The notes: a model not told the origin generated them from the letters alone. DNA of 46,775 nt from an uncultured Muribaculaceae bacterium (GCA_964542235.1 CAZITT010000001.1:1-46775); one strand, 5' to 3'. Counted from the stretch's first letter, positions 8,343 through 46,067 are shown. A program made the numbers and translations.

Positions 8343-8352
8343 AGAGGTACTT

Positions 8353-28543: not shown

Positions 28544-28556
28544 ATAATAATCTCCT

Positions 28557-29852: not shown

Positions 29853-29878
29853 ATTATTTAATCCTTTCGAACTTTAAA

Positions 29879-30816: not shown

Positions 30817-30840
30817 ATTTTATCACCTACTATTTCAATT

Positions 30841-33207
30841 TTATTTATAAAAATCTTTTTTGTCATATATTTTTAAATATATAGACCAATGCGATTTGCC
30901 ATTTATTTTTTTATTATACGGTATGTATAGATATATTTTATCATCAACTTTCATTATTGTCGACTTATAAACTCTACTATTTTCTTCAGTTTTAACAAAT
31001 GATATATCAATATTCTTAATAGTTTCAAAATTTAAGCCATTATTTGATTTCATCAGACAAAGTTCACCATTTTGTAAATAAGCTAAATAGTAATAACTAT
31101 TATCTTCTCTAATTATTTCACCATGCCATACTATCTTAGTAAAGTTATTGATTTCAACTTTTATAGGACTTGTCCATTTTTTTAAGTCATTACTTTCTCG
31201 GTAATAAATATTCCCATCATAATTTACATACCAAATTTTATATTTATTATTTTCATAAATAATACTCATACTCATAAAAGCCTGATTATCTTCTTTATCA
31301 AAAATTAACTCTTCTTTAGACCAGTTAATTCCATCCTTACTTGTTTTTCGATAAATTAAACAATTATATTTTTTACTTTCAACTTTTCCATATATATATG
31401 GATTAAATCGATACCAAAGTTCAAACTGACCATTATTATAAAATAAATAAGGATCTGAACAATAATCTTTAATATGATTTTTAGTTGTACAAGCAACTGG
31501 ATTAGAAAGTCCATTTGGAACAATCCAGTGGGTTCCAGAATTTGATGCTAAAATAGAAGGATTTTCATATCTTGGATTATCATTTGGAAGAGGAGTTAAC
31601 GTTAACCAATATTTATAGCCAGAAACTTTTTTATTTAAATTTACTATTGAAGGATGAGTTGCCTGATTACTTCCATCGTAGGTTGTCGTAACAATAAAAT
31701 TACTAAAATACTTATTTTCTAAACTATGGTAATACTTGTAATAACTAACAAAATAAACTGTATAACTATTATTAAGATGATAATATTTTAAGAAACTATT
31801 ATATTGCTCTTCATTGGTTGGCTTTCCTTTTTGTCTTATAATTTGAGGATAAGGATAACTTGGTAAAATAATATTATAATCTTTTATTTTTATTTTAAAA
31901 TTGATAATTTCTGATATTTCTAGTTTGTTTAAATAATTTTTATAGGCAACATAACCAAGTATTACTGATAATGATAAACTTCCTATAATTATCAAAATAT
32001 TTATTATTTTTGGTTTAATAACAAATAAGTTATTAGCAAGTAAATAAGTAAAAATTATCAATATTACATATGAAGAGAAAAAGCATCTTGGTCCAATGCG
32101 ATAAGAAACTAATAGAGGAAGAGCTACTATAAATGCTGATAAAAATAAACATAATAACATGAAAAACTGATTTTTATCTTTTTGATAAAACAATTTATAT
32201 AAAAGATGAATTATAACATAAACATAAATTAAAAAGATTAATAACTTAATTTTAGTTGAAAATATAAAATTTAAAGGATTAAAGTATAAAAAAGGATATA
32301 TTATAAAAGTTATTAACGATAATGCTATTATTAGTAATTGTGCATACTTATTTTTTACTTTTTTAATATTAAGAACAAATAGTATTCCAATAATAAAATT
32401 TAAAACAATATTCTCGTATGATAAACTATCTAACCAAATAGTATTTTTTAAATTGTAAATTATTTTATCTATAAAACCCATATTAACAAAAAAATCAGCA
32501 TTAGTAAGTCTTGGCATATTTCCCCAATAAACTGGCGATAAAAAAGTAAGGGCGCAAAAAGCAATGCTAGTAAATAAGAATACTAATTGTAACTTATATA
32601 CTTCCTTTCTTATTAAGTAACTTGCTCCTATTATTCCAACAGCTAAAAGGACACTAAAAATAGAATTATGCTCTGTAAATAAATTCATGAATATTCCACA
32701 TAAGATAGCTATTACGTAATGATACCATTTGTATTCAATTTTTGCTTCTTTATTAAAAATATCTTTAGAAATATAAATAATCTCAGCAATACATAATCCT
32801 GGTATAACAAAATTAGCAAAACTACTCATCCAAGATATCGTATCTTTAAACATGCTAAGAGGCATTAAAATTAATAATAAAAAGCTTAACAAAATGCTTT
32901 GAAATTTATTAATTTTAATATATTTTGATAAAACAGTTATAAGAGTTAGCATAACTAAAGATGAAAAAATGCTTTTAAAAATATCACTATATTTAAATAA
33001 GCAAACTAAAATATTTCCAAAAAATCTACCATTATAAGTTTTCCATAGATAAACACTATTTTTTATTGAAGATAAAAAATTAAGAGACTTTTTACCCCAG
33101 TCGTCACTATTATAAGGAAACATATAAAATAATGCTCCTAGGAAAACAAAAATAATAAAACTAATAATTATGTCATAATAATTCTTTTTTATAAAATTCT
33201 TTAACAT
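30841..33207 (-). CDS. fusion protein: polytopic (~12 TM) GT-C/DUF6056-like membrane domain plus a C-terminal extracytoplasmic beta-propeller (glycoside-hydrolase-like) domain
   Basis: The first ~420 aa are almost entirely TM helices (YMFPYNSDDWGKKS near the start). The last ~300 aa read ATHPSIVNL...YKYWLTLTPLPNDNPRYENPSILAS..G.HW, with repeated W/Y-rich blade-like segments. Confidence 0.55.
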   Translation of the reverse strand: MLKNFIKKNYYDIIISFIIFVFLGALFYMFPYNSDDWGKKSLNFLSSIKNSVYLWKTYNGRFFGNILVCLFKYSDIFKSIFSSLVMLTLITVLSKYIKINKFQSILLSFLLLILMPLSMFKDTISWMSSFANFVIPGLCIAEIIYISKDIFNKEAKIEYKWYHYVIAILCGIFMNLFTEHNSIFSVLLAVGIIGASYLIRKEVYKLQLVFLFTSIAFCALTFLSPVYWGNMPRLTNADFFVNMGFIDKIIYNLKNTIWLDSLSYENIVLNFIIGILFVLNIKKVKNKYAQLLIIALSLITFIIYPFLYFNPLNFIFSTKIKLLIFLIYVYVIIHLLYKLFYQKDKNQFFMLLCLFLSAFIVALPLLVSYRIGPRCFFSSYVILIIFTYLLANNLFVIKPKIINILIIIGSLSLSVILGYVAYKNYLNKLEISEIINFKIKIKDYNIILPSYPYPQIIRQKGKPTNEEQYNSFLKYYHLNNSYTVYFVSYYKYYHSLENKYFSNFIVTTTYDGSNQATHPSIVNLNKKVSGYKYWLTLTPLPNDNPRYENPSILASNSGTHWIVPNGLSNPVACTTKNHIKDYCSDPYLFYNNGQFELWYRFNPYIYGKVESKKYNCLIYRKTSKDGINWSKEELIFDKEDNQAFMSMSIIYENNKYKIWYVNYDGNIYYRESNDLKKWTSPIKVEINNFTKIVWHGEIIREDNSYYYLAYLQNGELCLMKSNNGLNFETIKNIDISFVKTEENSRVYKSTIMKVDDKIYLYIPYNKKINGKSHWSIYLKIYDKKDFYK

Positions 33208-33208
33208 A

Positions 33209-34750
33209 TCATTTTCTCCTAGTTATTTTATTTTTAAAAATATCTTTAATAGTTTCCCAAAATCTTCTTTCTAAATATAAAAATTCTTTTCTATAAAACA
33301 AATTAAACATTCCAATTACAATTAACAAAATAATAATTCCATAAATTAGTGAATAAACAAACCACATTGTTAAACTTTTAGGAACAAATGGCATAATCAT
33401 CGAAAATAAGTAAACGATTGAAATAGTTAATAAAATTATTAAGATATTTTTTAAATGATAACCTAGCCAGAAAAGAACATCAAATTTATTAAACAATTTT
33501 TTAGCGGAATGATAAGCATAGCCCCAAGATTCTATTCCAAAAGAAGCAATAATTGTTCCAATTAATACGCCATTAATTCCATAACCTTTAACCAAAGCAA
33601 AAGATATTACTAAATTAACAAGAGCTGTTGCCATTAACATCTTTTTTGTTTCTTTAAATATGCCAAGAATGTTAGAAAGGATATGAGATGATCTAACAGT
33701 CAAGTTATGGTACAACATTAATAAAAACAATATTAAAGTAACAGTTGAAGCTGAATACTTTCCACCAATCCAAATAATTACAAATTTATTTAAAACAAAG
33801 AATAATAAAATAATCATTAATACTGCAAAAAAAGAAAATATGGTATTAGTTTGTAAAATGGATTTTTTTATTTTTTCTTCATCGTTAGTAGCTACAATAC
33901 TACCTATCCCATCTTTTATGGCATAAAAGATATGTTTGGAAGTATCAACAGTATATTTTATTATATAATTATAAGATCCATAGACAACAACTGATTCTGT
34001 TCCCACAAAAGAGGATAAAAGAACAATATCAATATTATTAGAGATTAATCCTGCAATTCGATGAATTATTAAACTATTAACATCTTTTTTTATTTCATAA
34101 TTTTTATTTTTGACATTTTTTAGCCATGGATAATCTTTTTTTATTTTATTATTTATTATTACATTTTGAATTATTGCAATAAATGATGAGGGAATTAATA
34201 TCAAAATATAATTAAATCCTTGATATAAAAGAAGTATTTCTACTAATATTTCTAATGTTTTAAATGAATACATAATAACATTAAATTTATAACTTTTATT
34301 ATCAGCTGTTACCACATATCTAGGAACAAACATAAAATAATCAATAACATTTTTAAGGACAAAAAGCATGAAAGTCACTACTAAAAAAATTAAATTGAAA
34401 TTATTTTCTTTAATTATAAACTGAATAAAGAATGACAAAATAAAACCTATTATAATCATTCCAATTCCTATTTTTTTAAATATATCTACTGTTCCTGAAT
34501 ATAATCTATTTATTTCATTATAATTTTTATTATTTAAATGCTTATATAATCTATACATTAAAGCTGATCCAAAACCAGCTTCTAAAACACTAATATAAGA
34601 AAATAGATTAATATAAACTTGATTTAAGGCAAAAATATCTTCTCCTAATGACGTTATAAAAATTCTTACTTTTAATATGCCTAAAATTGCAATTATAAAA
34701 TAAAATATATAACTAGATAAAAAATTTAGAATCCCATTTTTAGTTCTCAT
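33209..34750 (-). CDS. wzx: Wzx-type (MOP superfamily) oligosaccharide flippase
   Basis: 513 aa with ~14 TM segments. The N-terminus ILGILKVRIFITSLGEDIFALNQVYINLFSYISVLEAGFGSAL is typical of polysaccharide-biosynthesis flippases. Confidence 0.8.
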   Translation of the reverse strand: MRTKNGILNFLSSYIFYFIIAILGILKVRIFITSLGEDIFALNQVYINLFSYISVLEAGFGSALMYRLYKHLNNKNYNEINRLYSGTVDIFKKIGIGMIIIGFILSFFIQFIIKENNFNLIFLVVTFMLFVLKNVIDYFMFVPRYVVTADNKSYKFNVIMYSFKTLEILVEILLLYQGFNYILILIPSSFIAIIQNVIINNKIKKDYPWLKNVKNKNYEIKKDVNSLIIHRIAGLISNNIDIVLLSSFVGTESVVVYGSYNYIIKYTVDTSKHIFYAIKDGIGSIVATNDEEKIKKSILQTNTIFSFFAVLMIILLFFVLNKFVIIWIGGKYSASTVTLILFLLMLYHNLTVRSSHILSNILGIFKETKKMLMATALVNLVISFALVKGYGINGVLIGTIIASFGIESWGYAYHSAKKLFNKFDVLFWLGYHLKNILIILLTISIVYLFSMIMPFVPKSLTMWFVYSLIYGIIILLIVIGMFNLFYRKEFLYLERRFWETIKDIFKNKITRRK

Positions 34751-34772
34751 AAGCTACATCTCTTTTCGTTTT

Positions 34773-35690
34773 TCAATTGTATTTAATTCCATTTACTATT
34801 CTTTTTTTTCTTACTTTATTAGTTATCAATAAATCAATGTATGGCAATAATTTAAAACCATATTTAATATAATTTAAATTTTTTCTTCTTAAATATTGAA
34901 TAAAAATAAAAGCATTTAATCGATACATCACTTTTCTTCTATCAAGAATGTTTAATTCTTTTAAATATGGCTTTACTAATTTTATTACTTCTTTTTTGGC
35001 TTCTATTGCTTTTAAACTACCTGTTATTCTAGTTTCACCACTATGAAAATACGATCTAGATCCAACAAAATTAAAGTACCCGATTTTGTAATTTCCAACA
35101 ATTGTATTTAACAACAAAATATATTCTTGACTTGCAGGAATATCGTAAAATCCACCTAGATCTTCTAAAACTTCTTTTTTGTAAACATAACCAGTAGTTC
35201 CACTTATAACATCCACTAATATTTTTTTAAGTAAACCTTTTCGTGTCAAATCAAAATTTTTTTTGTAACTATTAATATATTTTTCTTTGGTATCGACATA
35301 ATAATGCTCAACATCACAAAAAATCATATCATAATTATTTTTAGTAATAAATTCAATTTCTTTTTCAATATTATTAGGAAAATAAATATCATCATCATCA
35401 AGAAAAGTTATGTATTCGCCTTTTGCATTTTTAATTCCAAAATTTCTAGTTTTACAGGCTCCACCATTTTTAGGCATTTTTAAATATTTGACTTTAGGAT
35501 TATTTTGATATTTTTTATTGATTAAATTTTCGGTTTCTTTTCTATGTATTGAATCCTTATCATTATCATCTACTACTATAATCTCAATATTATCGTATGT
35601 TTGTTTTAAACCAGAATCAATTGCTCTTTTTAATGTCGTTGGTCTACTATATGTTGGGATAACAATACTAACTAATGACTTTTTCTTCAT
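34773..35690 (-). CDS. family 2 glycosyltransferase
   Basis: VSIVIPTYSRPTTLKRAIDSGLKQTYDNIEIIVVDDND and the FLDDDD (DxD) motif. Confidence 0.85.
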   Translation of the reverse strand: MKKKSLVSIVIPTYSRPTTLKRAIDSGLKQTYDNIEIIVVDDNDKDSIHRKETENLINKKYQNNPKVKYLKMPKNGGACKTRNFGIKNAKGEYITFLDDDDIYFPNNIEKEIEFITKNNYDMIFCDVEHYYVDTKEKYINSYKKNFDLTRKGLLKKILVDVISGTTGYVYKKEVLEDLGGFYDIPASQEYILLLNTIVGNYKIGYFNFVGSRSYFHSGETRITGSLKAIEAKKEVIKLVKPYLKELNILDRRKVMYRLNAFIFIQYLRRKNLNYIKYGFKLLPYIDLLITNKVRKKRIVNGIKYN

Positions 35691-35700
35691 AATTTACTCC

Positions 35701-36759
35701 TTAATTTAATAAAATTTTTAATTCACGTTTAATATTTTCATTATAATTTTTTAAATAATCATATTGTTTGTTTTTATTTTTTTTAGCTTTTATTATACTA
35801 TCTATTATGTCATTTGATGTTTTAATATTAGGACAATATTTTTGTAAATGAGATGGCATAAAGACATCTAATCCTAACGTTTTAGCTTCTAATCCTACTA
35901 TTCCCTGCCCTTCATAGCGAGACATCATAATAAATCCATCCATCAAATTCATAATATTATAAGGATTACTTTTCTCTCCTAATAAAGTGATGCTATTATT
36001 TAGATTATTTTTATTTATTTTATTAATGATATTAAACTTTTCTTCACCATCACCAATGATATAAAGATGAATATCATCTCTTTTTTGTTTTATTTTATGA
36101 AAATTATCAATCAAAATATCCATCCCTTTAACTTTTGCAAATCTACCAACACTAATTAAATTATATTTACTTTGATCAATTTTTAAATTTATTTTTTCTT
36201 TACTCTTTTCTATGACGTCATCCACAATAATCAAATTTGGAATTACCTGATAATTTTTATTAGCGAAAGGATATATATTATAAAATGATGATACTATTCC
36301 TTTAGAAACAAAAACAAATTTTTGATATAATTTAAATTTACTTTTTGATAAAATACTTGATATTTTATATCTTTTTTCATATTGATACTTTTTTTCTAAA
36401 TCACTATGAATAAAACAAACTTTATTTTTAGAATTAGTATTTAATGTTGCGATTGCTGTTTCATTGCTATAACTGTTAAAATCAATTGCCAAATCATAGC
36501 TTTTATCGATAAAGTAATTATTTTTATAAAGTTTATTTAAAATATTAAAAGGAAGATACTTACCAATCTTAGGTAATTTATCTAAATATTTTATATTTAT
36601 ATTTTTACTTTTTTCTATTTTGCCAATATTAAAAAAGTTGCTTTTATCAAAAAGATATAAATCAATATCGACATTATTAATATTTTCTAAAATATTAATT
36701 AATGATCTTTGGATTCCTCCAACATGTAAATCTGTTTGAAAAATAGCAACTTTTTTCAT
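35701..36759 (-). CDS. GT-B fold (family 4-like) glycosyltransferase
   Basis: N-terminal KVAIFQTDLHVGGIQRSL and C-terminal SRYEGQGIVGLEAKTLG (E-x7-E-like) motif. Its start overlaps the upstream stop (ATGA). Confidence 0.8.
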   Translation of the reverse strand: MKKVAIFQTDLHVGGIQRSLINILENINNVDIDLYLFDKSNFFNIGKIEKSKNINIKYLDKLPKIGKYLPFNILNKLYKNNYFIDKSYDLAIDFNSYSNETAIATLNTNSKNKVCFIHSDLEKKYQYEKRYKISSILSKSKFKLYQKFVFVSKGIVSSFYNIYPFANKNYQVIPNLIIVDDVIEKSKEKINLKIDQSKYNLISVGRFAKVKGMDILIDNFHKIKQKRDDIHLYIIGDGEEKFNIINKINKNNLNNSITLLGEKSNPYNIMNLMDGFIMMSRYEGQGIVGLEAKTLGLDVFMPSHLQKYCPNIKTSNDIIDSIIKAKKNKNKQYDYLKNYNENIKRELKILLN

Positions 36760-38255
36760 CTTAATTTCTTCCTCTCATTACGTATAAAATTAAAGATATA
36801 TCCTGCTGTTATTGCCCCATATATACTTACAGTTGGGGCAAAATAAGTATGCCCTGAAAAATACGCAATAGAAAATGTTAATATTAAGGTAATTCCACAA
36901 CAAATTATTTTATCATTATCTAAATGTTTTTTTATTTTATTTAAAAACAATATAACAAATCTTATTAAAATATACGAAGGCAATAATAAATAGATTACCA
37001 ATCCTATTATACCATAAGAATAGTATATATCAAAATAATCAGATTCGGCAATTACCTCATTTTCTTTGTCATTATATAAGGTGGATCCAAATAATTTTTG
37101 GATAAAACTTGCATCCTTAACTAATTCTTTTTTTATTTCTCTTTTTGTCTTTCTTCCACTATATATTATATCAATAATTGGACTATCTTCATCAATTAAT
37201 GCCCCTTCTTTGTTTTCACTTTTAATATAGTAATCATAACGATTTAATTGATATATGTAATTATAATAATTTGGTGAAAAATAAGTTAAGCAAATGGTTA
37301 TTGCAATTAAAATAAAATAATAGCCAACTTTTTTTATACCATTTTTACTGATTATAAAAATGATAAATTGTCTTAATAAATAAAAAGATAAAGAAAAAAT
37401 TAAAGCGAGAGCTAAAGTTTTTGTGCCTATAATTAATAAGCCGCAGGAATAAAAGATAAATATGACATATTTAGTAAATTGGTTTTTTACTTTATTAATA
37501 CTTAAGACAACAAATGGCGATAAGATAGCTAATAAATTGCTAACTTCATTTGGAGATCTAAACCACCCTATTTCTCCTTGCTTGCCCCAGCCATTAAATT
37601 CGGGTGATGATATCAATAATAAAGCAATCGAAATTACTATAATATAAACATTACTAATAATATTAATTATTTTGTTAAAATAATCCTCTTTCTTAAATGA
37701 TATTAATTTTAGTGATATAACAGGAGCAAGCAGTAAAACAGCATTAATAAAGCCTGATAAAGAAAACCAATTATAATCAGCATAACAACCAGAATCATAT
37801 GTTTTAACTGAACTAGACATTATCATCGCTAACATTATAAATCCAATATATATAAATGAAATTATTGATAAAATATTGAAAATATTTTCCTTTTTACTTT
37901 TATAAAATAAAATAATAAAAAATAAAATCATCATTGGATAATAGATTAATTTAGCAATAAAAATTAATTCTAACATTAATGTTTTAAGATTTATAAATGG
38001 CATATTGGCAACCAAAAAACCACTTACAAAAAAAATCACTAAAATACTATAAATTAACCAAACTTTTTTATTATTTTTAAAAATATAAAAGTAGGCAAGA
38101 AACAAAACGAAAAAACGAAATAATGCACTAAAAGAAATTCCAACTATATTTAACTCATTAGTTAAAGATGAAATTATATCAATCATTGGACTTAGAATTA
38201 ACAATATCTCTACTATCGACATTTTTTCTTTTATTTTGGTAATTATTTCTTTCAT
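36756..38255 (-). CDS. wzy: Wzy / O-antigen-ligase family polymerase-like membrane protein
   Basis: About 12 TM segments with one larger external loop (GWGKQGEIGWFRSPNEVSNLLAILSP), characteristic of the Wzy_C/O-antigen ligase family. I prefer the ATG at 38255, preceded by AAGGAGG. Confidence 0.7.
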   Translation of the reverse strand: MKEIITKIKEKMSIVEILLILSPMIDIISSLTNELNIVGISFSALFRFFVLFLAYFYIFKNNKKVWLIYSILVIFFVSGFLVANMPFINLKTLMLELIFIAKLIYYPMMILFFIILFYKSKKENIFNILSIISFIYIGFIMLAMIMSSSVKTYDSGCYADYNWFSLSGFINAVLLLAPVISLKLISFKKEDYFNKIINIISNVYIIVISIALLLISSPEFNGWGKQGEIGWFRSPNEVSNLLAILSPFVVLSINKVKNQFTKYVIFIFYSCGLLIIGTKTLALALIFSLSFYLLRQFIIFIISKNGIKKVGYYFILIAITICLTYFSPNYYNYIYQLNRYDYYIKSENKEGALIDEDSPIIDIIYSGRKTKREIKKELVKDASFIQKLFGSTLYNDKENEVIAESDYFDIYYSYGIIGLVIYLLLPSYILIRFVILFLNKIKKHLDNDKIICCGITLILTFSIAYFSGHTYFAPTVSIYGAITAGYIFNFIRNERKKLR

Positions 38256-38271
38256 AGGAACCTCCTTAAGA

Positions 38272-39495
38272 TTATTTAACAATCCAGGCATTAATTACAT
38301 ATCTTTGCCCTACTGAATTAGTTACTCTTGGTTTATTGATCAATTTGTTATTAATAATTAAAGTAGATGATCCACCACCATCTAAATTAGCAGCATTATA
38401 AGCTTTATATTTAACAAATATATCGGCTAATTCCTTAATACTTATTCCAACACTACTAGACTGTCTACCATCAATAACAACCAAAATAACAATTCCATCT
38501 TGTCTTTGACCAATTGCTGTTCTAGGATGAATTCCGTATCCACCATTACCTTTAAAAGTTGATACCTTGCCATTGACGATTAAATATGGACCAAATTCAA
38601 CAGCATCTCTAATGCCATTAGCAACTGCTTGTTTAGCGGTTTGGTTAGTTAGCGTTAAAACATTATCATTATTAAATGCTATTAATTGCCCTTTTTTACC
38701 ATTATTATAATATATTTTTCCATCAGTAATAACATTGCCACTAGGTTTAATTAATGATCCTACTCTTTTAAAGCCTCCGGCATTAATACCAATAACAGCA
38801 TTATTATCTTTTACTATTTTTTCAACGGTTTGACCACTATTAGATAAATTTTTTGCCATAACAAAACTAATTCGTGAAGGATCGTATAAAACAACCATAT
38901 AACCTTTATAATTATCTCCTTCAATTTCTACTAATTTATATAAATCATTGCCTTCATCTTTTTTTAATACTTGTTCCTCATAAGCTGATTCATAATAATT
39001 TTGTTCTTCTATTTCAGTGATTTTTATCTTTGAAGTATCAGTTTCTCCTCCTACTTCAATAGTAACATTCTCACTTGCTATTTGTTTTACTTTTTCTTCA
39101 GAATAAAGGACATATGCATAATAACGATGAGACATTGTCGTAAGGGCTGTTGTTACTAACCAATCTCTAAAAAAACTAAGTGGTCCATAAGCAACGAAAA
39201 AAGAAATTATTACTAAAACATCTAAAATTATTAACAATTTGCCATAGAAATATTTAGATTTTTTAAATTTACTGTTATTTTTATTTACTTGATTAAGGTC
39301 TTCCTCAATTTTATTTTTTGACTTATCGATATCAGCTGCTATATCCTCAATTATTTCTACATTCTTTTTATTTTTAAATAATTTTTTAATTAACTTTTTC
39401 TTAGATTTTTCGGTAGTATCGATGATAGCATCTAGATTTTTTATAGCCGCTACTTTGCTTAAATCAATATTTTTATCGTTATCATTATTTTTCAT
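38272..39495 (-). CDS. membrane-anchored phosphodiester glycosidase family protein (NAGPA / 'uncovering enzyme'-like)
   Basis: Lys-rich cytoplasmic N-terminus and one TM. C-terminal domain motifs are IGINAGGF, HPRTAIGQRQDG, VIDGRQ and NLDGGGSST. Confidence 0.75.
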   Translation of the reverse strand: MKNNDNDKNIDLSKVAAIKNLDAIIDTTEKSKKKLIKKLFKNKKNVEIIEDIAADIDKSKNKIEEDLNQVNKNNSKFKKSKYFYGKLLIILDVLVIISFFVAYGPLSFFRDWLVTTALTTMSHRYYAYVLYSEEKVKQIASENVTIEVGGETDTSKIKITEIEEQNYYESAYEEQVLKKDEGNDLYKLVEIEGDNYKGYMVVLYDPSRISFVMAKNLSNSGQTVEKIVKDNNAVIGINAGGFKRVGSLIKPSGNVITDGKIYYNNGKKGQLIAFNNDNVLTLTNQTAKQAVANGIRDAVEFGPYLIVNGKVSTFKGNGGYGIHPRTAIGQRQDGIVILVVIDGRQSSSVGISIKELADIFVKYKAYNAANLDGGGSSTLIINNKLINKPRVTNSVGQRYVINAWIVK

Positions 39496-40873
39496 CTGAC
39501 GCTACCTCCAATTCATAAGGATTATTTTTGGTTCCATTTCCTTTTAAAATATTAACATCATCTTTTAAATAGATAGATGGTCTTATTTTTTTCTTAGCAG
39601 TAACAAAGTCCGCAAAAAAAGTTTTATCATCAGTAGTACTGTATACCAAGGTATTATTACTTCCATATGGTCTATTTGACAAGAAGACATTTAAATAATC
39701 TTGAACGTATAAATCGCCTATTTTCAATAAACCAACATTAGCATTATATTTAGCATTATAAACATCTTTATAATTATATTTATTATAGCCAGTATAAACT
39801 CCATAGTACCAATCTGATTTAACTATATACTCTTTACTATTTAAAGAATTATAAAAATTATTATTTAAGTAATAACCAATAGTTCCTTTAGCTGTAGAAA
39901 ATTTACTATTACCATAAGTTATATCAATTTCATTACCTTCATTATCTTTAATATATCCATCAAGTGCTAATTGAATTTTTCCTTCTTGTTTTGATATAAC
40001 TTTCCATAGATAATTACTATATTTTATATAATTAGAAACACTAACATTTGCTAATATATTGACATTATTATTTTCAATTATATATGGATCGCTTTTAGTT
40101 CCTGTTCCTGATACTAGGTTAGTATAATTTCTAATCGTAATAACTGGTCTTATTCCATGGCTGGATCCTAATATTTTGCCTTCTTGAATTCCACCATCTG
40201 ATGCTACATACCAATATTGATTATTGCTATTAGTAGTTGCAAGCCACCAATCTTCTTCATTATTTAAATAGCTTTTAGATCCTCCTATTTTTTTATAATC
40301 ATTAAGTGATAATAAAGTTACATAATCTTCTTCATATAAACTATTACACGTTATAGCCTCAACATTATCTATTTTATCTATACACAAAGAAGTTTTTTCC
40401 ATATATTCATACTGATTGTTTAAACTCTTAAAATAAATACCAGTATTATTGACATTTTTAATATTTTCTAACCAATATCTAATAGGAGCATTTTGATATT
40501 TATCAGCTTGTTCTTGAATAAATAAGGTATCTGATTCTTCTCTAATCATTTTAATATTTTTATCTTGATCGATATCAATAATTCTCCACATTCTACCAGA
40601 GTACATAACATAATTTTTAATAGCATTACCTTTATAGGTATAAGTGCCATCATCATTATCTATTAATCCATTATCTAGATCAATATAACTAATATATTTT
40701 AATAGATCATCAACTAAAACAACTGCTTGATCAGATAATCCATTAGTGTTTTGTTTTAAATAATAATATACAAGGCGATATGAATAAAATATTACAAAAA
40801 AAAGAATAATTAAGGAATTAATTATATAGAAAAATGTTCTTTTTTTTATTTTTGATCTAGTTTTATTATCCAT
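39485..40873 (-). CDS. signal-anchored extracellular protein with two tandem DUF6273-like modules, function unknown
   Basis: N-terminal TM. Two repeats each end in a basic-RP-hydrophobic strand followed by G(T/N)GTKx(D/N)PY: HGIRPVITI...GTGTKSDPYIIE and KKIRPSIYL...GNGTKNNPYELE. WWLATT and WRIIDID motifs also occur. Confidence 0.45.
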   Translation of the reverse strand: MDNKTRSKIKKRTFFYIINSLIILFFVIFYSYRLVYYYLKQNTNGLSDQAVVLVDDLLKYISYIDLDNGLIDNDDGTYTYKGNAIKNYVMYSGRMWRIIDIDQDKNIKMIREESDTLFIQEQADKYQNAPIRYWLENIKNVNNTGIYFKSLNNQYEYMEKTSLCIDKIDNVEAITCNSLYEEDYVTLLSLNDYKKIGGSKSYLNNEEDWWLATTNSNNQYWYVASDGGIQEGKILGSSHGIRPVITIRNYTNLVSGTGTKSDPYIIENNNVNILANVSVSNYIKYSNYLWKVISKQEGKIQLALDGYIKDNEGNEIDITYGNSKFSTAKGTIGYYLNNNFYNSLNSKEYIVKSDWYYGVYTGYNKYNYKDVYNAKYNANVGLLKIGDLYVQDYLNVFLSNRPYGSNNTLVYSTTDDKTFFADFVTAKKKIRPSIYLKDDVNILKGNGTKNNPYELEVASDEK

Positions 40874-40890: not shown

Positions 40891-41577
40891 TTAATCTCCA
40901 AAGTCATTTTGATAAGCGATTAAGCTGGCATTAATCATGCCATTTATATCACTAAATTTATCAACAATATCTTCATCAATTTTACCATTTTTATCACTTC
41001 TTAAATCCATTTCAAAAGTAAGTTCTACTTCATGGCCATATAGTGATTTGCTTTTTAACTTATATTTGGGCATTTTTTTAAGAGTACTAATTACTTCTTC
41101 ATGAGCATTAGCATTATATTTTAATATTAATAAATATCTACTTGATACTTTAAAACCCATTAAATAGCTAATATAATATAAAATTCCTAAAATAAGTGAA
41201 CCAATTATCGCTGGTAAATAAAAGCCCGCTCCTGCCATAATCCCAGCGGAAATGCCCCAAAACATAAAACCAGTATCAACAGGTTCTTTAACAGCTGTTC
41301 TAAATCTGACAATAGATAAAGCACCAACCATACCAAGTGATAATGAGATGTTGGAAGATATGGTTCTAATGATTAAAGCTGTAACCATTGCTAGCATAAT
41401 AATACATAATGCAAAGGCTTTAGAATAAACAACTCCGGTATAGGTCTTCCTATATATGTAAACAATAAATATGCCAATCATAAAAGCTATCAATAATGAT
41501 AATAACATCTGCTCAATAGTAATTGTTCCGGTAAATTCTTCCAAAACCGATTTTTTAATTGCATCAACAAAACTCAT
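40891..41577 (-). CDS. DUF4956-family membrane protein
   Basis: 228 aa with 4-5 TM segments containing LSIVRFRTAVKEPVDTGFMFWGISAGIMAGAG. About 85 aa form a soluble C-terminal tail. It follows the VTC gene by 16 nt with an AAAGGAG RBS. Confidence 0.7.
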   Translation of the reverse strand: MSFVDAIKKSVLEEFTGTITIEQMLLSLLIAFMIGIFIVYIYRKTYTGVVYSKAFALCIIMLAMVTALIIRTISSNISLSLGMVGALSIVRFRTAVKEPVDTGFMFWGISAGIMAGAGFYLPAIIGSLILGILYYISYLMGFKVSSRYLLILKYNANAHEEVISTLKKMPKYKLKSKSLYGHEVELTFEMDLRSDKNGKIDEDIVDKFSDINGMINASLIAYQNDFGD

Positions 41578-41593
41578 AAAATATTACTCCTTT

Positions 41594-42274
41594 TTATTTA
41601 ATACTACGACATTTAGCAAATTTTGAAACAGCTTCTCGACACATTGGAATAGTTTCAATAATTGTTGCAATATGACTTGGTAGTATTTCATTAAATTTTA
41701 TTTCTAATACTTGTTTTTTATCTCCTATAACTTCAAAACTAGGAGCTTTTTTATTAAATAAGTCAACATTATACATCCCAGATTTAATATGGGAATCAAA
41801 TGTAACTCTAACTTCTGATAATGGATAAATATAAGCGATTCGATGATATTCAACGATGATGGATGGGATTAATTTTTTAGTTTTCACATCTAGCAAAAAC
41901 TCTGTTAATAAAGGATCATTTGTCGAAATATCACTTATTTTACCTAAAATAATTTTACTATATATATCTCTAGAAATCAAGGTTTGTTTTTTGGAAGTTA
42001 ACGTATTATATTTTAATTTAGCTTCAAGTCTTATAAAATTTTCATCGTTATTATAAATTCTAACTCGATACTTTTTGCGATATAAAACTCCATCTATTTT
42101 TTCATAATAACTACTTGATTTTAAATCATCAAAATATAAACTTTTAACGAGATATGAATGATCATCAAAATAAGAATTATTATCATTTTTCATAACTAAA
42201 TTAAGTCTTTGTTTTAATATTTCTGCTTGATTATCAGAAATTATAAATTTTAATTCATGTCTATACTTACTCAT
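41594..42274 (-). CDS. VTC-domain (polyphosphate polymerase catalytic tunnel-like) protein
   Basis: Starts MSKYRHELKFII, followed by VKSLYFDD, YRKKYRVRIY, FIRLEAKLK, VRVTFDS, LEIKFNE and SKFAKCR. This matches the conserved ladder of basic/aromatic strands in bacterial VTC-domain proteins. I prefer the ATG at 42274, 4 nt after the CotH stop. Confidence 0.75.
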   Translation of the reverse strand: MSKYRHELKFIISDNQAEILKQRLNLVMKNDNNSYFDDHSYLVKSLYFDDLKSSSYYEKIDGVLYRKKYRVRIYNNDENFIRLEAKLKYNTLTSKKQTLISRDIYSKIILGKISDISTNDPLLTEFLLDVKTKKLIPSIIVEYHRIAYIYPLSEVRVTFDSHIKSGMYNVDLFNKKAPSFEVIGDKKQVLEIKFNEILPSHIATIIETIPMCREAVSKFAKCRSIK

Positions 42275-42278
42275 AACA

Positions 42279-45179
42279 TCACCCAAATAATTCCTTAGCT
42301 TTACTACTTGATAGTCCAAAAAAACTTTTTGCTTGACTTCTAATATAACTTTGTCTTTGTTTAGTAAACGTCTTTAAGTAATTAACTTGATTTTTCCATT
42401 CGTTATAAGAATAACCCCATTTATCTAAATTTCTCTTCATTTCAGGTTGTAATTCATTATATATTTGATCAATCATTGCATTGACATTGGCAGTTGACCA
42501 AGTATTTTTCAAATTATAACTAAGTCTTTCAATATAAGTATTTTTAAATTCTTTATTTTTCATTAAATTTCTAAGTAAGAAAGTTGAATAATGATTAAAT
42601 GTCATCCCGCTAGAAGAAGTTGAAAACTGAAAGTAATTTTTTTCTGGATGATACATTGAATAATCTAAATCGTAAAAAATGAAATGCCATTTTCCATTGT
42701 CGACATAAGGATTAGAAAAATATCTACAATTGACAATATCGTTATTAGTTGTCCAAGTCTCAGCAATCCAAAAATCAATTAAATTCTCAATATCGATTTG
42801 CTTTTTTATTTCTTCATAATATTTTTGATTGCTCATCGAATGAGTTTTTATATAATTTAACATATTATTGTATTTTGTACTGCTGCCACTTTTAACATTG
42901 CCATCTATTCTTAAAATATCAGATTTTTCGCCACTAACGTTATAGTTATTATCAACAAAAGTAGCATCTACTTTCTCTCTAATGTAATAAATTCCCCAAT
43001 AATTTCCATTAATATATAAAATTGTTGATTTATATGCTTGAACATCAACATTAGTATATTTATCAACTAATGATGTTGTTACAAGATCTCTAATAATAGC
43101 ATGTCTATCGCCAGGCGCTTGTTCATCTTGAGAACCAGTCCTAAGTACTAGCGAATTAAAAACTGAAAAATCACGATTATCAAATACTTGATACTCCAGT
43201 TCGCCTTCTCCATATTTCTTTTTAAAAACTATTTCAAAGCTTTTTTTGGCATGGCCTCTTGTTGAACCACCAAATAATTGTAAAGCACAAGGTATTTCAA
43301 AGCCTTCTTTGCCATTTTCAAAAAACTCAGCATAAGCTGCTACTTCTAAACCCGTAACCCAAGCATTTCTACTTAAATAACTAAAATCGCTTTGTTTTAG
43401 GCTAACAGACATTACGGGAAGAATATGATTTTCATTAATAATATAAGAATTAGCAACTACTTCACTGTTTAACTTTCCCGATTCCACTGAAATAGCTTTA
43501 ACTACAGAGGTTTTTGATAAAGTAAGGGGACCTTTATATACTTTTGAAGATGTCGTTGGTTTTGACCCATCCAAGGTATAATAAATAGTCCCTTCACCTT
43601 TAATTTCAACGCTTATATTTTTTACATCGTTATATATACCTGCTTCTTTTAAAATATCCGGTTTAAATGCTATCGCTTTTTGTCCTTTATTATTTTTAGC
43701 TTTTGGCGTCGGTGACGAATAATAAAATATTCCACTACTATTTCCTTTTCCAACGCTGTAACCCGTTAATACATCAGCCATAAATAAAGAATCAACAATT
43801 TTATTATTTTTTACTAAGTAAATCCCTTCTATATCTCCTAATTTAAAATTAGCATGTTTATAAGAACTATTGGATAATTTAGTGTTACCTGATGCCATAA
43901 TAATATAATATTCACCTTTTTTTAACTCCACATCAGGTAATTTATACATGTTCATATTATCAGTACTAGTGGTAAGATAATAATCACTTAATTTTATAGT
44001 AGAATTACTATTATTTTTTAATTCAATCCAATCATAATATCTTCCACCATTTTGCGCCATATATTTATAATTAGAGTTCATTGCTTCATTAATAATTAAT
44101 GTATCTTTAGTTTTTATTGTTGAGTTAAATTTTTCAATACCATTTGTATTATTAATATAGCCTGGACTAATACTACTACCCTTAAAAAAACCATTATTTC
44201 CTCTAATATAAGCAAGTCCATTAGACAAACTACTATATTTTACTGAATCAACAACTTGTCCTTTACTATTAGCAAGAACTACTACGCCATCAAAATTATT
44301 AAGTTTAAAATTAGCATGTAATATACCTTCAGTTATATTGCGATTAGATGTATAAACTAAGACAACTTCTCCTTTTTTAATTTTAAGATCAGGAAATTGC
44401 CATCTAAAATTAATTGAATCATCGTTTGATAAACTATATCCTTTTAAATTAATAGTTTCATTTCCAATATTAATTACCTCAATATAACCACTAAAACTAT
44501 CATAATTATCAGTGAAATAGCCTTTATTATTAGGCAATATTTCATTTATTACAATACTATTTTCTTCATTTGATATAAGAGATTTTAAAAATAAATTATG
44601 TCCTTCTACTGTATTAGCATATCCTGGTGTTGGCTTAGTTTGAATTATCCACGAACCATTTAAATCTCTTGCCATAACATAATTGTTTGATAGTCCAACC
44701 GTTGTAACCGCATCAATGGTTTTACCATTAGGATTTCTTAGTGTTAAAGTCTCTCCACCACCACTTTTAAGTTTAAAATTAACATATAATCCATTTATTT
44801 TGCTACCACTTAAAAAAACAACAAGATATTCGCCTCTTTTAACAATGGCGTTAGGAAATGTCCACTTTATTTTATTAGCAACATCAGATAAACCATAGTT
44901 TTTTAAATTGACATCTTTACTAGTACCATTATATATTTCCACATAGTCATATAAATTGCCATTAGAATCAAGATAAGCTCCTTTATTAGCAGTCATAATT
45001 TCATTAATTACTAATTTATTTACAACAACTTCTCCTGATTCTAAATCTTTTTCTTTTAAAGATGCTTTTTTACCACTAGTACCAAAAAAGATAGATAAGA
45101 CTAAAAAAACAACAACAATTAATATTGCTATAATGAAAAAATCCTTTTCCTTTAGAAATTTATTTTTATCAAACTTCAC
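42279..45179 (-). CDS. signal-anchored CotH kinase-family protein with three lamin-tail-like domains and a chitobiase-C-type module
   Basis: GTG start with a GAGGTAG RBS. TM segment FFIIAILIVVVFLVLSIFFG. Three LTD-like repeats begin VINEIMTAN, VINEILPNN and IINEAMNSN, each ending in a FKL..(G/F).G motif. Also GTIYYTLDGSKPTTSS. The C-terminal ~370 aa CotH domain shows FEIVFKKKYG, LVLRTGSQD, YINGNYWGIYYIREK and KWHFIFYDLDYS. Confidence 0.85.
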   Translation of the reverse strand: MKFDKNKFLKEKDFFIIAILIVVVFLVLSIFFGTSGKKASLKEKDLESGEVVVNKLVINEIMTANKGAYLDSNGNLYDYVEIYNGTSKDVNLKNYGLSDVANKIKWTFPNAIVKRGEYLVVFLSGSKINGLYVNFKLKSGGGETLTLRNPNGKTIDAVTTVGLSNNYVMARDLNGSWIIQTKPTPGYANTVEGHNLFLKSLISNEENSIVINEILPNNKGYFTDNYDSFSGYIEVINIGNETINLKGYSLSNDDSINFRWQFPDLKIKKGEVVLVYTSNRNITEGILHANFKLNNFDGVVVLANSKGQVVDSVKYSSLSNGLAYIRGNNGFFKGSSISPGYINNTNGIEKFNSTIKTKDTLIINEAMNSNYKYMAQNGGRYYDWIELKNNSNSTIKLSDYYLTTSTDNMNMYKLPDVELKKGEYYIIMASGNTKLSNSSYKHANFKLGDIEGIYLVKNNKIVDSLFMADVLTGYSVGKGNSSGIFYYSSPTPKAKNNKGQKAIAFKPDILKEAGIYNDVKNISVEIKGEGTIYYTLDGSKPTTSSKVYKGPLTLSKTSVVKAISVESGKLNSEVVANSYIINENHILPVMSVSLKQSDFSYLSRNAWVTGLEVAAYAEFFENGKEGFEIPCALQLFGGSTRGHAKKSFEIVFKKKYGEGELEYQVFDNRDFSVFNSLVLRTGSQDEQAPGDRHAIIRDLVTTSLVDKYTNVDVQAYKSTILYINGNYWGIYYIREKVDATFVDNNYNVSGEKSDILRIDGNVKSGSSTKYNNMLNYIKTHSMSNQKYYEEIKKQIDIENLIDFWIAETWTTNNDIVNCRYFSNPYVDNGKWHFIFYDLDYSMYHPEKNYFQFSTSSSGMTFNHYSTFLLRNLMKNKEFKNTYIERLSYNLKNTWSTANVNAMIDQIYNELQPEMKRNLDKWGYSYNEWKNQVNYLKTFTKQRQSYIRSQAKSFFGLSSSKAKELFG

Positions 45180-45215: not shown

Positions 45216-45224
45216 ATTTTATCA
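45216..45224 (-). promoter_or_regulatory. extended -10 promoter element for the CotH-led operon
   Basis: The minus strand reads TGaTAAAAT, 37 nt upstream of the GTG start, in the 57 nt gap after mutM. Confidence 0.4.
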
Positions 45225-45236
45225 TATGATTTCGAC

Positions 45237-46067
45237 TTATTCAACCACTTTTTGACATATTGGACAATAGTAGGTACTTCGCCCATTTATCTTTTCTCTT
45301 ACTATTATATTACTACAATTAGGACATTTTTCTTTTTCTTTTTTATGAACTAACAAATCATTTTGAAATAATCCTGTTATTCCCTCATCAGAGGTATAAC
45401 TTCTAATAGTTGTTCCTCCTTTTTTAATCGCTTCTTCTAAAATAACTTTAGTATTATCAATAATATTTTGTAATTCTTTATTGTTTAAATCTTTACCTTT
45501 TTTATAGGGATTAATCTTTGATAAGAATAATATCTCATCAGCATAAATATTGCCAATTCCAGCGATAATGCTTTGATCAAGTAATAATGTTTTGATAGGA
45601 ATGATTTTATTTTGATATTTTTCTTTTAAATAATCAATGTTAAGTTTATCATCCCATGGCTCTAAGCCTATTTTAGAAAGAGGCGTATTAGTAAACAATT
45701 TATCTTTTTCTACTAAATACATTCTACCAAACTTTCTCGTATCTTGATATCTTAACTGACTATCATCATCAAAAGTAATAGTAAGATGTTCATGCTTTAA
45801 AATAGGATCTTTTGTATTTTTATAAAAGAATTTCCCCTCCATTCGCAGATGACTTAAAAGATAATAGTTATCTAAGTTAAATATAAGCCATTTACCTAAC
45901 CTATCTATATCTATTATTTTTGTATTTTTTATTAATTTTAAAAATTCTTCTATTTTAGGATAGGCTATCATTTTAGGATAAAATACTTTAGCCTCTTTGA
46001 TATTTTTATTTAATATTTTTCTTTTTAATGTATTTTTTACTGTTTCTACTTCTGGTAATTCAGGCAT
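45237..46067 (-). CDS. mutM: formamidopyrimidine-DNA glycosylase
   Basis: N-terminal MPELPEVETV, H2TH region, and a C-terminal zinc finger CPNC-x16-CPIC. Confidence 0.95.
   Translation of the reverse strand: MPELPEVETVKNTLKRKILNKNIKEAKVFYPKMIAYPKIEEFLKLIKNTKIIDIDRLGKWLIFNLDNYYLLSHLRMEGKFFYKNTKDPILKHEHLTITFDDDSQLRYQDTRKFGRMYLVEKDKLFTNTPLSKIGLEPWDDKLNIDYLKEKYQNKIIPIKTLLLDQSIIAGIGNIYADEILFLSKINPYKKGKDLNNKELQNIIDNTKVILEEAIKKGGTTIRSYTSDEGITGLFQNDLLVHKKEKEKCPNCSNIIVREKINGRSTYYCPICQKVVE

Follow-up and report, generated by a model that had tools for sequence, protein, structure and literature searches.

A CotH, VTC and DUF4956 gene trio as a conserved, mostly stand-alone envelope module with a plausible link to polyphosphate export

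We found that the genes for a surface-anchored CotH-family protein, a soluble VTC-domain protein and a DUF4956 membrane protein form a mostly stand-alone, self-contained envelope module, which is widespread in Firmicutes, is conserved as a set of neighbours across Bacillota and has glycan genes beside it in a minority of loci. As a tentative reading, which we prefer to its alternatives while rating it below an even chance, polyphosphate would be made inside the cell, exported and then used or handled by the external CotH protein acting on envelope polymers or proteins. Such a supply to an external kinase is plausible and would fit all of the findings presented here. If true, the trio may give bacteria a route for moving phosphate-bond energy to the cell exterior.

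Open reading frames (ORFs) were called over the whole window, that is, the entire stretch of 46,775 nucleotides analysed. The calls agreed with the first-pass annotation in placing three contiguous and co-oriented genes on the minus strand, in the order CotH-like, VTC and DUF4956, with gaps of 4 nt (CotH/VTC, counting from the ATG start of VTC) and 16 nt (VTC/DUF4956). The domains proposed there (three lamin-tail domains, a chitobiase-C-type module, CotH, VTC and DUF4956) were all recovered by profile search, the Pfam matches of the three proteins exceeding gathering scores. The features of the trio and its surroundings are:

45216..45244, minus strand: promoter-like site (TTGAAT, 17 nt, TG-n-TAAAAT) by consensus match, inside the 57-nt gap after fpg
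42279..45179, minus strand: gene for the surface-anchored CotH-family kinase (Pfam), 966 aa, GTG start, GAGG ribosome-binding site
45084..45140, minus strand: N-terminal signal anchor (hydropathy score 3.46) at aa 14-32, preceded by a Lys-rich N-terminus
43785..45014, minus strand: three lamin-tail domains (LTD), aa 56-158, 209-313 and 361-465 (Pfam, 8.5e-44)
43443..43643, minus strand: CHB_HEX_C_1 / Fn3_assoc module, aa 513-579 (Pfam; CHB_HEX_C_1 2.4e-15)
42342..43280, minus strand: CotH kinase-like domain, aa 634-946 (Pfam PF08757, 1.7e-43, 149.8 bits vs a cut-off of 23.8)
42738-42740, minus strand: CotH D814, aligned with B. subtilis CotH D228 and B. cereus D224
42669-42671, minus strand: CotH D837, aligned with B. 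subtilis CotH D251 and B. cereus D247
41594..42274, minus strand: gene for the soluble VTC / triphosphate-tunnel protein, Vtc4-like, 226 aa from the ATG (MSKYRHELKF), Pfam PF09359
40891..41577, minus strand: gene for the DUF4956 membrane protein, 228 aa, Pfam PF16316
41275-41343, minus strand: near-universal DUF4956 motif SxGMVGALSIVRFRTAxK[DE]PxD, aa 79-101
39485..40873, minus strand: membrane-anchored 462-aa protein with no family match, co-travelling with the trio in the window's clade
38272..39495, minus strand: membrane-anchored NAGPA-type phosphodiester glycosidase (Pfam), co-travelling with the trio in 7 related loci
27238..38291, minus strand: wall-glycan genes in the same tight gene string (ORF spacing, Pfam, terminator scan)

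The expectation that the trio is kept together in other genomes held. Across the 80 species-level loci of our comparison sample, VTC and DUF4956 were adjacent in 76, the four exceptions running off a contig end (76/76 where the contig allows), and CotH lay within 6 kb of VTC, the proximity limit applied, in 60 of the 80, in three different gene orders. The pair itself occurs with either gene first, a variation more readily expected of functionally coupled genes than of synteny kept by descent. Two results count against the polyphosphate model: around a quarter of the VTC-DUF4956 pairs have no CotH gene within 6 kb, and no VTC-DUF4956 fusion was present among the 80 loci or 150 cluster representatives. 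At loci L058 and L080, lamin-tail proteins without a CotH domain adjoin the pair, so that the external lamin-tail part itself appears linked to it.

Whether the trio tracks with polysaccharide clusters had been raised as a question, and in the sample it mostly does not: Pel genes were neighbours in 3-4 of the 80 loci, other glycosyltransferase-like genes likewise in 3-4, and no locus had an O-antigen-ligase-like neighbour. Most sampled genomes carry no glycan genes within 10 kb of the trio and have housekeeping genes at its flanks, and in C. difficile, Paraclostridium and Tissierella it stands alone. It is embedded in the pel clusters of Cytobacillus and a Lachnospiraceae genome, adjoins DUF6056 and GT2 genes on the P. 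xylanivorans plasmid pNP95, as in the window, and lies within a synthase cassette in Planococcus and C. perfringens. Because only a minority of the 80 loci have glycan genes beside them, the description of the trio as the lead module of a glycopolymer operon fits the window but not the family. In the window, the 15 genes from 45179 to 27238 overlap or lie at most 26 nt apart, and no minus-strand terminator-like site was found over this range, in line with the run into polysaccharide genes first noted. The genes within 27238..38291 include O-antigen-ligase-like, GT4, GT2, a 513-aa multi-TM protein and DUF6056, as well as Alg14/Alg13-like, UDP-glucose dehydrogenase, GT2 and GtrA; elsewhere they are not conserved beside the trio, even in the closest relatives. 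NAGPA stays with the trio in its 7 related loci even when inverted. The extended -10 element ascribed to the trio is present, but 169 sites of this type were found in the 24% GC DNA of the window vs 176 expected from shuffled sequence; occurring at chance frequency in AT-rich DNA, it does not indicate a separate promoter. The interval between fpg, which lies upstream, and CotH also lacked a terminator-like site. Diguanylate-cyclase genes occur near some trio loci and, in the window, at 22358-24415.

The first-pass annotation knew of no experimentally assigned function for the trio, which has nevertheless been described before. It was seen in 2010 in C. perfringens NELoc-2 (PMC2879425), and Whitfield et al. 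published it in 2020 as a set of genes accessory to Gram-positive pel loci (PMC7112168 = bioRxiv 10.1101/768473). In S. intermedius, where the trio is SIR_1594-1592, deletion of the DUF4956 or the CotH gene alters Pel level and aggregation, with Pel going up in the former case and down in the latter, whereas the VTC deletion has no reported aggregation phenotype, which speaks against the polyphosphate model (PMC12345266, 2025). The same study reported the trio to be absent outside pel loci; contrary to this, most of the copies sampled here lie outside them. The pel accessory group and the window share the same three families, contiguous and co-oriented, with a secreted CotH, a soluble VTC and a DUF4956 of 4-5 TM segments with an ACT-like tail. 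Contiguous with the pel group are pelDEADAFG and a DUF4832 hydrolase, whereas the window trio has neither: PelG, DUF3492 and DUF4832 gave no Pfam match in the 37 window ORFs scanned, three ORFs of at least 100 aa falling outside that scan. The S. intermedius CotH domain lies at the N-terminus, ahead of FN3, whereas in the window it is C-terminal, after three LTD and CHB_HEX_C, and the extra partners are the DUF4832 hydrolase in the former and NAGPA with the 462-aa protein in the latter. The C. perfringens NELoc-2 / Planococcus plasmid cassette (VTC, DUF4956, CotH, a ~690-aa protein, a HEAT-repeat protein and a glycosyltransferase) resembles the window in setting the trio beside a polysaccharide synthase-type gene, but differs in its order (VTC-DUF4956-CotH), its shorter CotH without lamin-tail domains and its other partner genes.

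The VTC protein (3.3e-30, 105.8 bits vs a cut-off of 23) has no hydrophobic segment by hydropathy, in keeping with the soluble protein first described, and consists of the VTC domain only, an SPX domain and a fused C-terminal TM (DUF202) domain being absent. The family profile matched the Vtc4 catalytic domain at 1.3e-12. An AlphaFold model (pLDDT 82.7) gave the Vtc4 structures 3g3r and 3g3q as best matches (E 1.5e-10, TM 0.60-0.64), with the Vtc2 tunnel domain and further tunnel enzymes ranking lower. Residues K9, R70, R72, E191 and K218 align with Vtc4 K200, R264, R266, E426 and K458; the positions aligned with K200, R264, R266, E426, S457 and K458 do not vary among 55 diverse homologues and are at least 90% conserved in 66 sequences. 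The functional roles of these tunnel residues in yeast Vtc4 were reportedly established by Hothorn et al. in 2009, and K458 distinguishes active Vtc4 from inactive Vtc2/3. The protein thus looks catalytically competent and Vtc4-like. Compared with the yeast VTC complex (Vtc4 tunnel, Vtc1/2/3 channel; 3g3q, 7ytj, 8i6v), the tunnel fold and the aligned residues are shared, as is an obligatory coupling of the catalytic domain to a membrane protein, in the window by gene adjacency. Unlike the yeast complex, the window has no SPX, its catalytic domain is a separate soluble protein, its membrane partner is the MgtC-like DUF4956 rather than the 3-TM DUF202 type, and its target compartment would be the cell exterior rather than the vacuole. 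The VTC start is ambiguous, the ATG at 42274 giving 226 aa and a TTG at 42286 giving 230 aa; in the near-identical contig L001, our comparison for the start call, the longer TTG form was called, overlapping the CotH stop codon by 8 nt.

DUF4956 (7.9e-12, 45.7 bits vs a cut-off of 30.6) has 4-5 hydrophobic segments by hydropathy, as had been proposed, with ~5 TM helices at aa 21-140 followed by an ACT-like beta-alpha-beta-beta-alpha-beta domain at aa 147-221. R91, R93 and K97 are 98% conserved, and this near-invariant R-x-R-x3-K motif is predicted to sit on the cytoplasmic side of the membrane. Outside its own family DUF4956 resembles only MgtC/SapB, through a weak, co-linear match (NCBIfam PRK09977; E 2.8e-5); at 23.9 bits vs a cut-off of 214 it can be no more than a distant relative, and Pfam MgtC was absent from a search with E allowed up to 5. 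A low-confidence model (pLDDT 68) gave no significant structural match, and the MgtC C-terminal domain 2lqj matched weakly in fold. DUF4956 resembles MgtC/SapB/YhiD in its ~5 TM helices and C-terminal ACT-like domain, but carries an invariant RFRTAxK motif of its own and is in every case paired with a VTC gene. MgtC is a regulator and not a known channel. A relationship to the Vtc1-type (Vtc1/DUF202) channel was considered and rejected, the two not being homologous, so that a pore role for DUF4956 would be conjecture.

The CotH protein (100% identical to P0121 on record) was first proposed to carry its kinase domain outside the cytoplasm. By hydropathy and the positive-inside rule, the domain is predicted to be extracytoplasmic in the window and in each of the 53 module ORFs whose N-terminus is intact: a hydrophobic N-terminal segment is present in 53 of 58, the remaining 5 not being full-length ORFs. 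Its CHB_HEX_C_1 / Fn3_assoc module also matches the C-terminal module of the beta-hexosaminidase 6q63. D814 and D837 have the same 23-residue spacing as the B. cereus CotH aspartates, and the catalytic and metal-binding aspartates are each at least 90% conserved among 26 diverse module CotH domains; mutant data for B. subtilis D228/D251 are cited in PMC7821199. With both catalytic aspartates kept, the domain looks catalytically competent. The profile of module CotH domains matched B. cereus CotH 5jd9 at 1e-43. The window thus shares the kinase-like domain and both aspartates with B. subtilis / B. cereus CotH, but differs from the spore-coat proteins in its membrane anchor, predicted location and large N-terminal extra domains, and it has neither CotB/CotG-type substrates nor a sporulation context.

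In the favoured model, the cytoplasmic Vtc4-like enzyme would polymerise the NTP gamma-phosphate into polyphosphate, as its conserved catalytic residues and fold suggest. It would dock on its obligatory membrane partner DUF4956 (MgtC-like, with a cytoplasmic ACT-like domain), to which the invariant gene adjacency points. Analogy with the yeast VTC complex is what suggests that the chain may then reach the outer face of the membrane, where the anchored LTD/CotH protein would use or handle polyphosphate in acting on polymers or proteins of the envelope. Since the trio heads a wall-glycan gene string and has NAGPA as a clade partner, the target in the window is probably a wall glycopolymer. Against this model, we know of no bacterial VTC-domain protein with polyphosphate synthesis and, to our knowledge, no enzyme of protein-kinase-like fold uses polyphosphate as a donor. 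A 2026 preprint on B. cereus describes polyphosphate outside the cells and, independent of PPK, a synthesis of unknown origin (PMC13484657).

An unlikely but serious alternative places VTC and DUF4956 at the inner face of the membrane, where they would synthesise polyphosphate, sense it or hydrolyse a triphosphate without export, an MgtC-like tuning of phosphate, Mg2+ or ATP status setting exopolysaccharide output while CotH acts separately outside with ambient ATP or none. The weak MgtC/SapB match and ACT-like domain would suit such a regulatory or homeostatic module, as would the opposite Pel changes in S. intermedius, which look regulatory, the diguanylate-cyclase genes near some loci and in the window, and the quarter of pairs lacking a nearby CotH. 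However, it leaves unexplained why the partner found most often is a secreted CotH/lamin-tail protein (60/80, with the lamin-tail-only proteins in addition), the MgtC match falls far under the family cut-off, and VTC keeps the K458-aligned residue and is nearer to Vtc4 than to the Vtc2 tunnel domain or triphosphatases.

Slightly less probable again is the other option of the first-pass annotation, that CotH is a glycan kinase or phosphotransferase acting on the polymer of the downstream genes, with VTC/DUF4956 supplying the donor for that pathway only and NAGPA trimming sugar-phosphodiester intermediates. The secretory kinases Fam20B and POMK, which are related to CotH, phosphorylate glycans, and the tight 15-gene string without a predicted terminator, the CHB_HEX_C module, the co-travelling NAGPA and the presence of the trio inside other glycan clusters (pel, pNP95, the Planococcus/C. 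perfringens cassette) are consistent with this. The general absence of glycan genes within 10 kb in most sampled genomes, and the lack of conservation of the window's own beside the trio even in its closest relatives, argue against it.

That CotH serves at the surface as an adhesin or scaffold without catalysis, a role suggested for Mucorales CotH invasins, with a biochemically meaningless VTC/DUF4956 linkage, is very improbable: the protein is indeed a large surface-anchored one of several domains, Ig-like and carbohydrate-module-like ones among them, but the aspartates and other core residues are kept in module domains only 12-52% identical to the window's, and CotH linkage recurs in 60/80 loci in three gene orders. 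A spore-coat kinase as in B. subtilis, for which the family name speaks, is hardly credible given the signal anchor and the finding of no sporulation genes among the Pfam-scanned window ORFs, the latter in line with the context first noted; published hosts of the module include streptococci and bifidobacteria, which are non-spore-forming.

The CotH-like, VTC and DUF4956 genes of the window (the trio) constitute a published module whose mechanism is still unexplained, and the window holds a new variant of it, in which one protein combines three lamin-tail domains (LTDs), a CHB_HEX_C module and a CotH domain, the partners are a phosphodiester glycosidase of the NAGPA family and a protein of 462 aa, and the surrounding wall-glycan genes are not of the pel type. 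The first-pass annotation had described three consecutive minus-strand genes with gaps of 4 nt (CotH/VTC) and 16 nt (VTC/DUF4956), which the ORF calls bear out when the ATG start is taken for VTC, and every domain it had named was confirmed by Pfam. Its interpretation of the trio holds up in part.

42279-45179, minus strand: CotH-like gene, 966 aa, GTG start with GAGG upstream of it
CotH-like protein, aa 56-158, 209-313 and 361-465: three LTDs (Pfam)
CotH-like protein, aa 513-579: CHB_HEX_C_1 / Fn3_assoc (Pfam)
CotH-like protein, aa 634-946: CotH domain (Pfam)
41594-42274, minus strand: VTC gene, 226 aa (MSKYRHELKF), ATG start at 42274, VTC domain (Pfam) spanning the entire protein
40891-41577, minus strand: DUF4956 gene, 228 aa, DUF4956 (Pfam)
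45244..45216, minus strand: extended -10 promoter-like site, TTGAAT, 17 nt, TG-n-TAAAAT

The start of VTC is ambiguous, as a TTG at 42286, four codons upstream of the ATG and preceded at 5 nt by AAGGA, gives a 230-aa form that overlaps the CotH stop codon by 8 nt and is the choice of public gene callers on a near-identical contig; either start implies translational coupling. The extended -10 element previously assigned to the trio is present, but matches like it occur at chance frequency in this 24% GC DNA (169 found, 176 expected). We saw no terminator-like site between the upstream fpg gene and the trio, nor any on the minus strand from the trio down to 27238, in agreement with the earlier reading that the trio runs into the polysaccharide genes, and the 15 genes of this stretch overlap or lie at most 26 nt apart. 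An Rfam scan found no regulatory RNA near the trio, only tRNAs. The genes 3' of the trio are, in order:

38272-40873, first and second: a 462-aa membrane-anchored protein with no family match, then a membrane-anchored NAGPA-type phosphodiester glycosidase
third: O-antigen-ligase-like protein
next: GT4 and GT2 glycosyltransferases
next: 513-aa multi-TM protein, then a DUF6056 protein
next: Alg14/Alg13-like proteins, then UDP-glucose dehydrogenase
last: a second GT2, then GtrA

The 462-aa and 513-aa proteins matched nothing in Pfam or NCBIfam, even at permissive thresholds.

To place the trio in a wider context, one scan of species-representative genomes was used, which retrieved at least 595 loci encoding a VTC relative, and the best 80 of these were analyzed by six-frame HMM searches. 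VTC adjoins DUF4956 in 76 of these best 80 loci and, as a contig end lies within 800 nt in each of the other four, the adjacency is complete wherever it could be tested among them. A CotH gene is found within 6 kb in 60 of the same 80, so the grouping noticed in the window recurs in other genomes. The gene order is CotH-VTC-DUF4956 in 33 loci (one with a second CotH), CotH-DUF4956-VTC in 13 and VTC-DUF4956-CotH in 11 (one with CotH on the opposite strand). Secreted LTD-only proteins that have no CotH domain lie directly upstream of VTC-DUF4956 in two of the loci (L058:8522-9970 and L080:8356-9429), so that the external lamin-tail part is in its own right linked to the pair; this part may be the piece functionally linked to VTC-DUF4956, possibly as a polyanion binder. 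The VTC tunnel enzyme is thus never apart from DUF4956, and the protein that most often joins the two is a secreted one of the CotH or lamin-tail kind. Additional lamin-tail ORFs are present in loci L029 and L064.

Hydropathy analysis agreed with the proposal of a soluble VTC protein and an extracytoplasmic CotH domain: in the CotH protein a Lys-rich start precedes a single strong N-terminal hydrophobic segment (aa 14-32), no such segment is seen in VTC, and DUF4956 contains several. Beyond the window, an N-terminal hydrophobic segment is present in 53 of 58 module CotH ORFs, the other five not being full-length, and CotH is therefore predicted to be extracytoplasmic in every testable case. 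Several of the short-type CotH ORFs also end with a C-terminal TM segment.

A profile built from 55 VTC homologues matched the yeast Vtc4 catalytic domain at 1.3e-12. Counted along the profile alignment, residues K9, R70, R72, E191, S217 and K218 of the window protein correspond to Vtc4 K200, R264, R266, E426, S457 and K458; these six tunnel-aligned residues are invariant in the 55 homologues, and in 66 sequences taken from the loci their conservation is 90% or higher. Hothorn et al. in 2009 reportedly found those Vtc4 residues to be catalytic, and K458 is said to separate active Vtc4 from inactive Vtc2/3. The AlphaFold model of VTC is a closed beta tunnel (pLDDT 82.7). Vtc4 structures containing AppNHp or polyphosphate fit it best (E 1.5e-10, TM 0.60-0.64), and lower in the ranking come the tunnel domain of Vtc2, E. 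coli YgiF, and CYTH cyclases and triphosphatases. Likewise, a profile of 26 module CotH domains (12-52% identity to that of the window) matched B. cereus CotH 5jd9 at 1e-43. Window residues D814 and D837 align with the aspartates equivalent to B. subtilis D228 and D251, mutation of either of which inactivates the B. subtilis CotH kinase (PMC7821199), and conservation of both in the 26 domains is 90% or higher. The Vtc4-domain and 5jd9 sequence matches depended on profiles; single-sequence searches of solved structures gave nothing relevant for VTC or the CotH domain. Because the tunnel residues and fold match Vtc4 and the catalytic aspartates are kept, VTC, as a Vtc4-like tunnel enzyme in the cytoplasm, and the CotH kinase domain, outside, both look catalytically competent from sequence and models.

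The AlphaFold model of DUF4956 is of only moderate confidence (pLDDT 68). An amphipathic N-terminal helix is followed in it by five helices (aa 21-140) and then by a beta-alpha-beta-beta-alpha-beta domain (aa 147-221). None of the Foldseek matches to this model was significant, the weak ones being to small ferredoxin-like/ACT-like domains, including the MgtC C-terminal domain (E about 0.02). NCBIfam returned a weak co-linear MgtC/SapB match (E 2.8e-5, far below the family threshold), which agrees with the description of S. intermedius SIR_1592 (PMC12345266). A signature, SxGMVGALSIV-R91-F-R93-TAx-K97-[DE]Px-D101, is 95-98% conserved in 62 sequences and is predicted by the positive-inside rule to lie at the cytoplasmic end of the third helix. 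With a model this weak the structure is uninformative on a pore and, since DUF4956 is also unconnected to a Vtc1-type channel, a pore function is conjecture. Natural VTC-DUF4956 fusions were sought, and the long VTC homologues carry only disordered basic N-terminal extensions with no Pfam domain; in homologues P0256, P0261, P0267, P0273, P0275, P0315 and others these are 140-400 aa long and rich in Lys, Arg, Glu and Pro.

The trio had been taken for the lead module of a glycopolymer operon. The window's string of genes fits this, but elsewhere glycan clusters are only an occasional neighbour of the trio. In the 85 genes lying immediately next to it on the same strand, housekeeping methyltransferases were the most frequent Pfam families; PelG and NAGPA occurred three times each and group-1 glycosyltransferases twice. 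When window, plasmid and Pel proteins were used as queries against everything within 10 kb at 80 loci, Pel genes were found in 3-4 and other glycosyltransferase-like genes likewise in 3-4, and no locus had an O-antigen-ligase-like gene. The three genes stand by themselves amid unrelated ones in C. difficile, Paraclostridium and Tissierella. The order pelF-pelG-CotH-VTC-DUF4956 occurs in Cytobacillus and a Lachnospiraceae genome, and P. xylanivorans plasmid pNP95 (L082, 4250-11769) carries a non-pel polysaccharide cluster, DUF6056-GT2-CotH-VTC-DUF4956-GT4, that resembles the window in its DUF6056 and GT2 genes. On a Planococcus maritimus plasmid (L083, 5389-12824), VTC, DUF4956, CotH, a 690-aa hypothetical protein, a HEAT-repeat protein and a glycosyltransferase follow the same gene order as C. 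perfringens NELoc-2, and the module thus has a second conserved form that is carried in part on plasmids. In the window's clade, the trio has the 462-aa protein and NAGPA as companions in 6-7 loci (L002, L003, L004, L007, L009, L011 and L012), even where these are inverted, and the window's glycosyltransferase genes do not travel with it; the two companions parallel the DUF4832 hydrolase of streptococcal pel loci. Together, the stand-alone loci and the varied glycan neighbours indicate that the trio is an autonomous module, repeatedly recruited next to different exopolysaccharide systems.

This module has been described before. Whitfield et al. reported that Gram-positive pel loci can have an accessory gene group made up of cotH, DUF4956, DUF4832 and a gene for a polyphosphate polymerase, with a bifidobacterial variant carrying a diguanylate cyclase/phosphodiesterase gene (PMC7112168), and the NELoc-2 genes given by Lepp et al. 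(2010) include those for VTC, a membrane protein and CotH (PMC2879425). In S. intermedius, deletion of the DUF4956 or the CotH gene reduced aggregation in sputum medium by more than half, with more Pel in the DUF4956 mutant and less in the CotH mutant; no aggregation defect was reported for the VTC deletion, and the authors went no further than to propose 'a role in phosphate metabolism' (PMC12345266). The module is thereby already tied genetically to Pel-dependent aggregation in a pathogen. The occurrence of the trio outside pel loci contradicts the statement in the same paper that the arrangement is not found there, and if the module is autonomous rather than a pel accessory these phenotypes are to be read differently. 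Our literature searches found no published mechanism for the trio. New here are sequence- and model-based indications that both enzymes are catalytically competent, the complete VTC-DUF4956 pairing, the predicted extracytoplasmic position of CotH, the autonomy of the module and the LTD partners that lack a CotH domain.

In the yeast VTC complex, polyphosphate is translocated through the membrane subunits as it is synthesised. By analogy, the cytoplasmic Vtc4-like enzyme would make polyphosphate on DUF4956, the chain would reach the outer face of the membrane and, outside, the CotH protein would use it as a donor or handle polyphosphate on envelope polymers. Polyphosphate synthesis by VTC is probable; export, suggested by the yeast system, is possible at somewhat less than even chances; and use of the chain by CotH is doubtful. 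In full, the trio could be a dedicated system for moving phosphoanhydride energy across the membrane as polyphosphate, in which MgtC-like DUF4956 is the conduit and has a Vtc4-like polymerase docked on it, polyanion-binding LTDs hold the external CotH near the chain, and the chain serves as donor for (poly)phosphorylating wall polymers or proteins, a proposal we put forward speculatively and rate as rather unlikely in its entirety. If true, CotH would be the first polyphosphate-dependent enzyme of a protein-kinase-like fold, and bacteria would have in the trio a source of extracellular polyphosphate that does not depend on PPK. As a concrete set of three proteins, the trio is a candidate answer to where secreted bacterial kinase-fold enzymes obtain their phosphoryl donor, and a candidate source of such polyphosphate in Gram-positive bacteria. 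CotH domains are found in cellulosomes, stalk-forming bacteria and biofilm loci. In B. cereus, extracellular polyphosphate and PPK-independent synthesis have been described with no enzyme assigned (2026 preprint, PMC13484657). A table in PMC10434189 places the B. thetaiotaomicron DUF4956 gene beside a DUF2490 gene (BT3498-BT3499), the expression of both shifting together when iron is limiting; this pair would fit export in diderms, provided that DUF2490 is an outer-membrane protein. The system is small and widespread and lends itself to direct reconstitution.

The main rival to polyphosphate export is a regulatory, MgtC-like role of VTC-DUF4956 in which nothing is exported, and this suits the opposite Pel phenotypes of the S. 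intermedius mutants. Local tailoring of the wall polymer, the alternative offered by the first-pass annotation, may apply at this locus, where the NAGPA neighbour and the CHB_HEX_C module favour it, but it cannot be the general role of the trio. No pel and no sporulation genes were found among the window ORFs scanned, the latter as the first-pass annotation had stated, and we reject a pel-accessory role for the window's trio and a spore-coat role for its CotH.

The relatives of the window are gut MAGs labelled Bacilli or Tenericutes, plus Clostridium sp. CAG:524. The remainder of the window consists of envelope and housekeeping genes, namely those for YfhO, PBP1, an LCP protein, an LtaS-like sulfatase and a membrane GGDEF protein, together with genes for DNA repair and tRNAs. 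The tRNA genes are on the minus strand at 1-53, 5923-5993, 12261-12333 and 12377-12450, three being complete and one cut by the window edge. The 685-aa protein with a C-terminal GGDEF domain (22358-24415, minus strand) lies within the same envelope-gene neighbourhood, and GGDEF genes are also close to the trio in loci L049 and L054. GtrA, a GT2 with C-terminal TM segments and DUF6056 (27238-33207) look like a three-part system for extra-membrane polymer glycosylation, with the YfhO gene (694-3267) at the opposite end of the window. On the plus strand, 6165-9717 encodes a 725-aa protein with SH3_3, cadherin-like and type I dockerin domains and, after it, a cadherin-like protein of 454 aa, the dockerin being unexpected for a small-genome gut Bacilli MAG.
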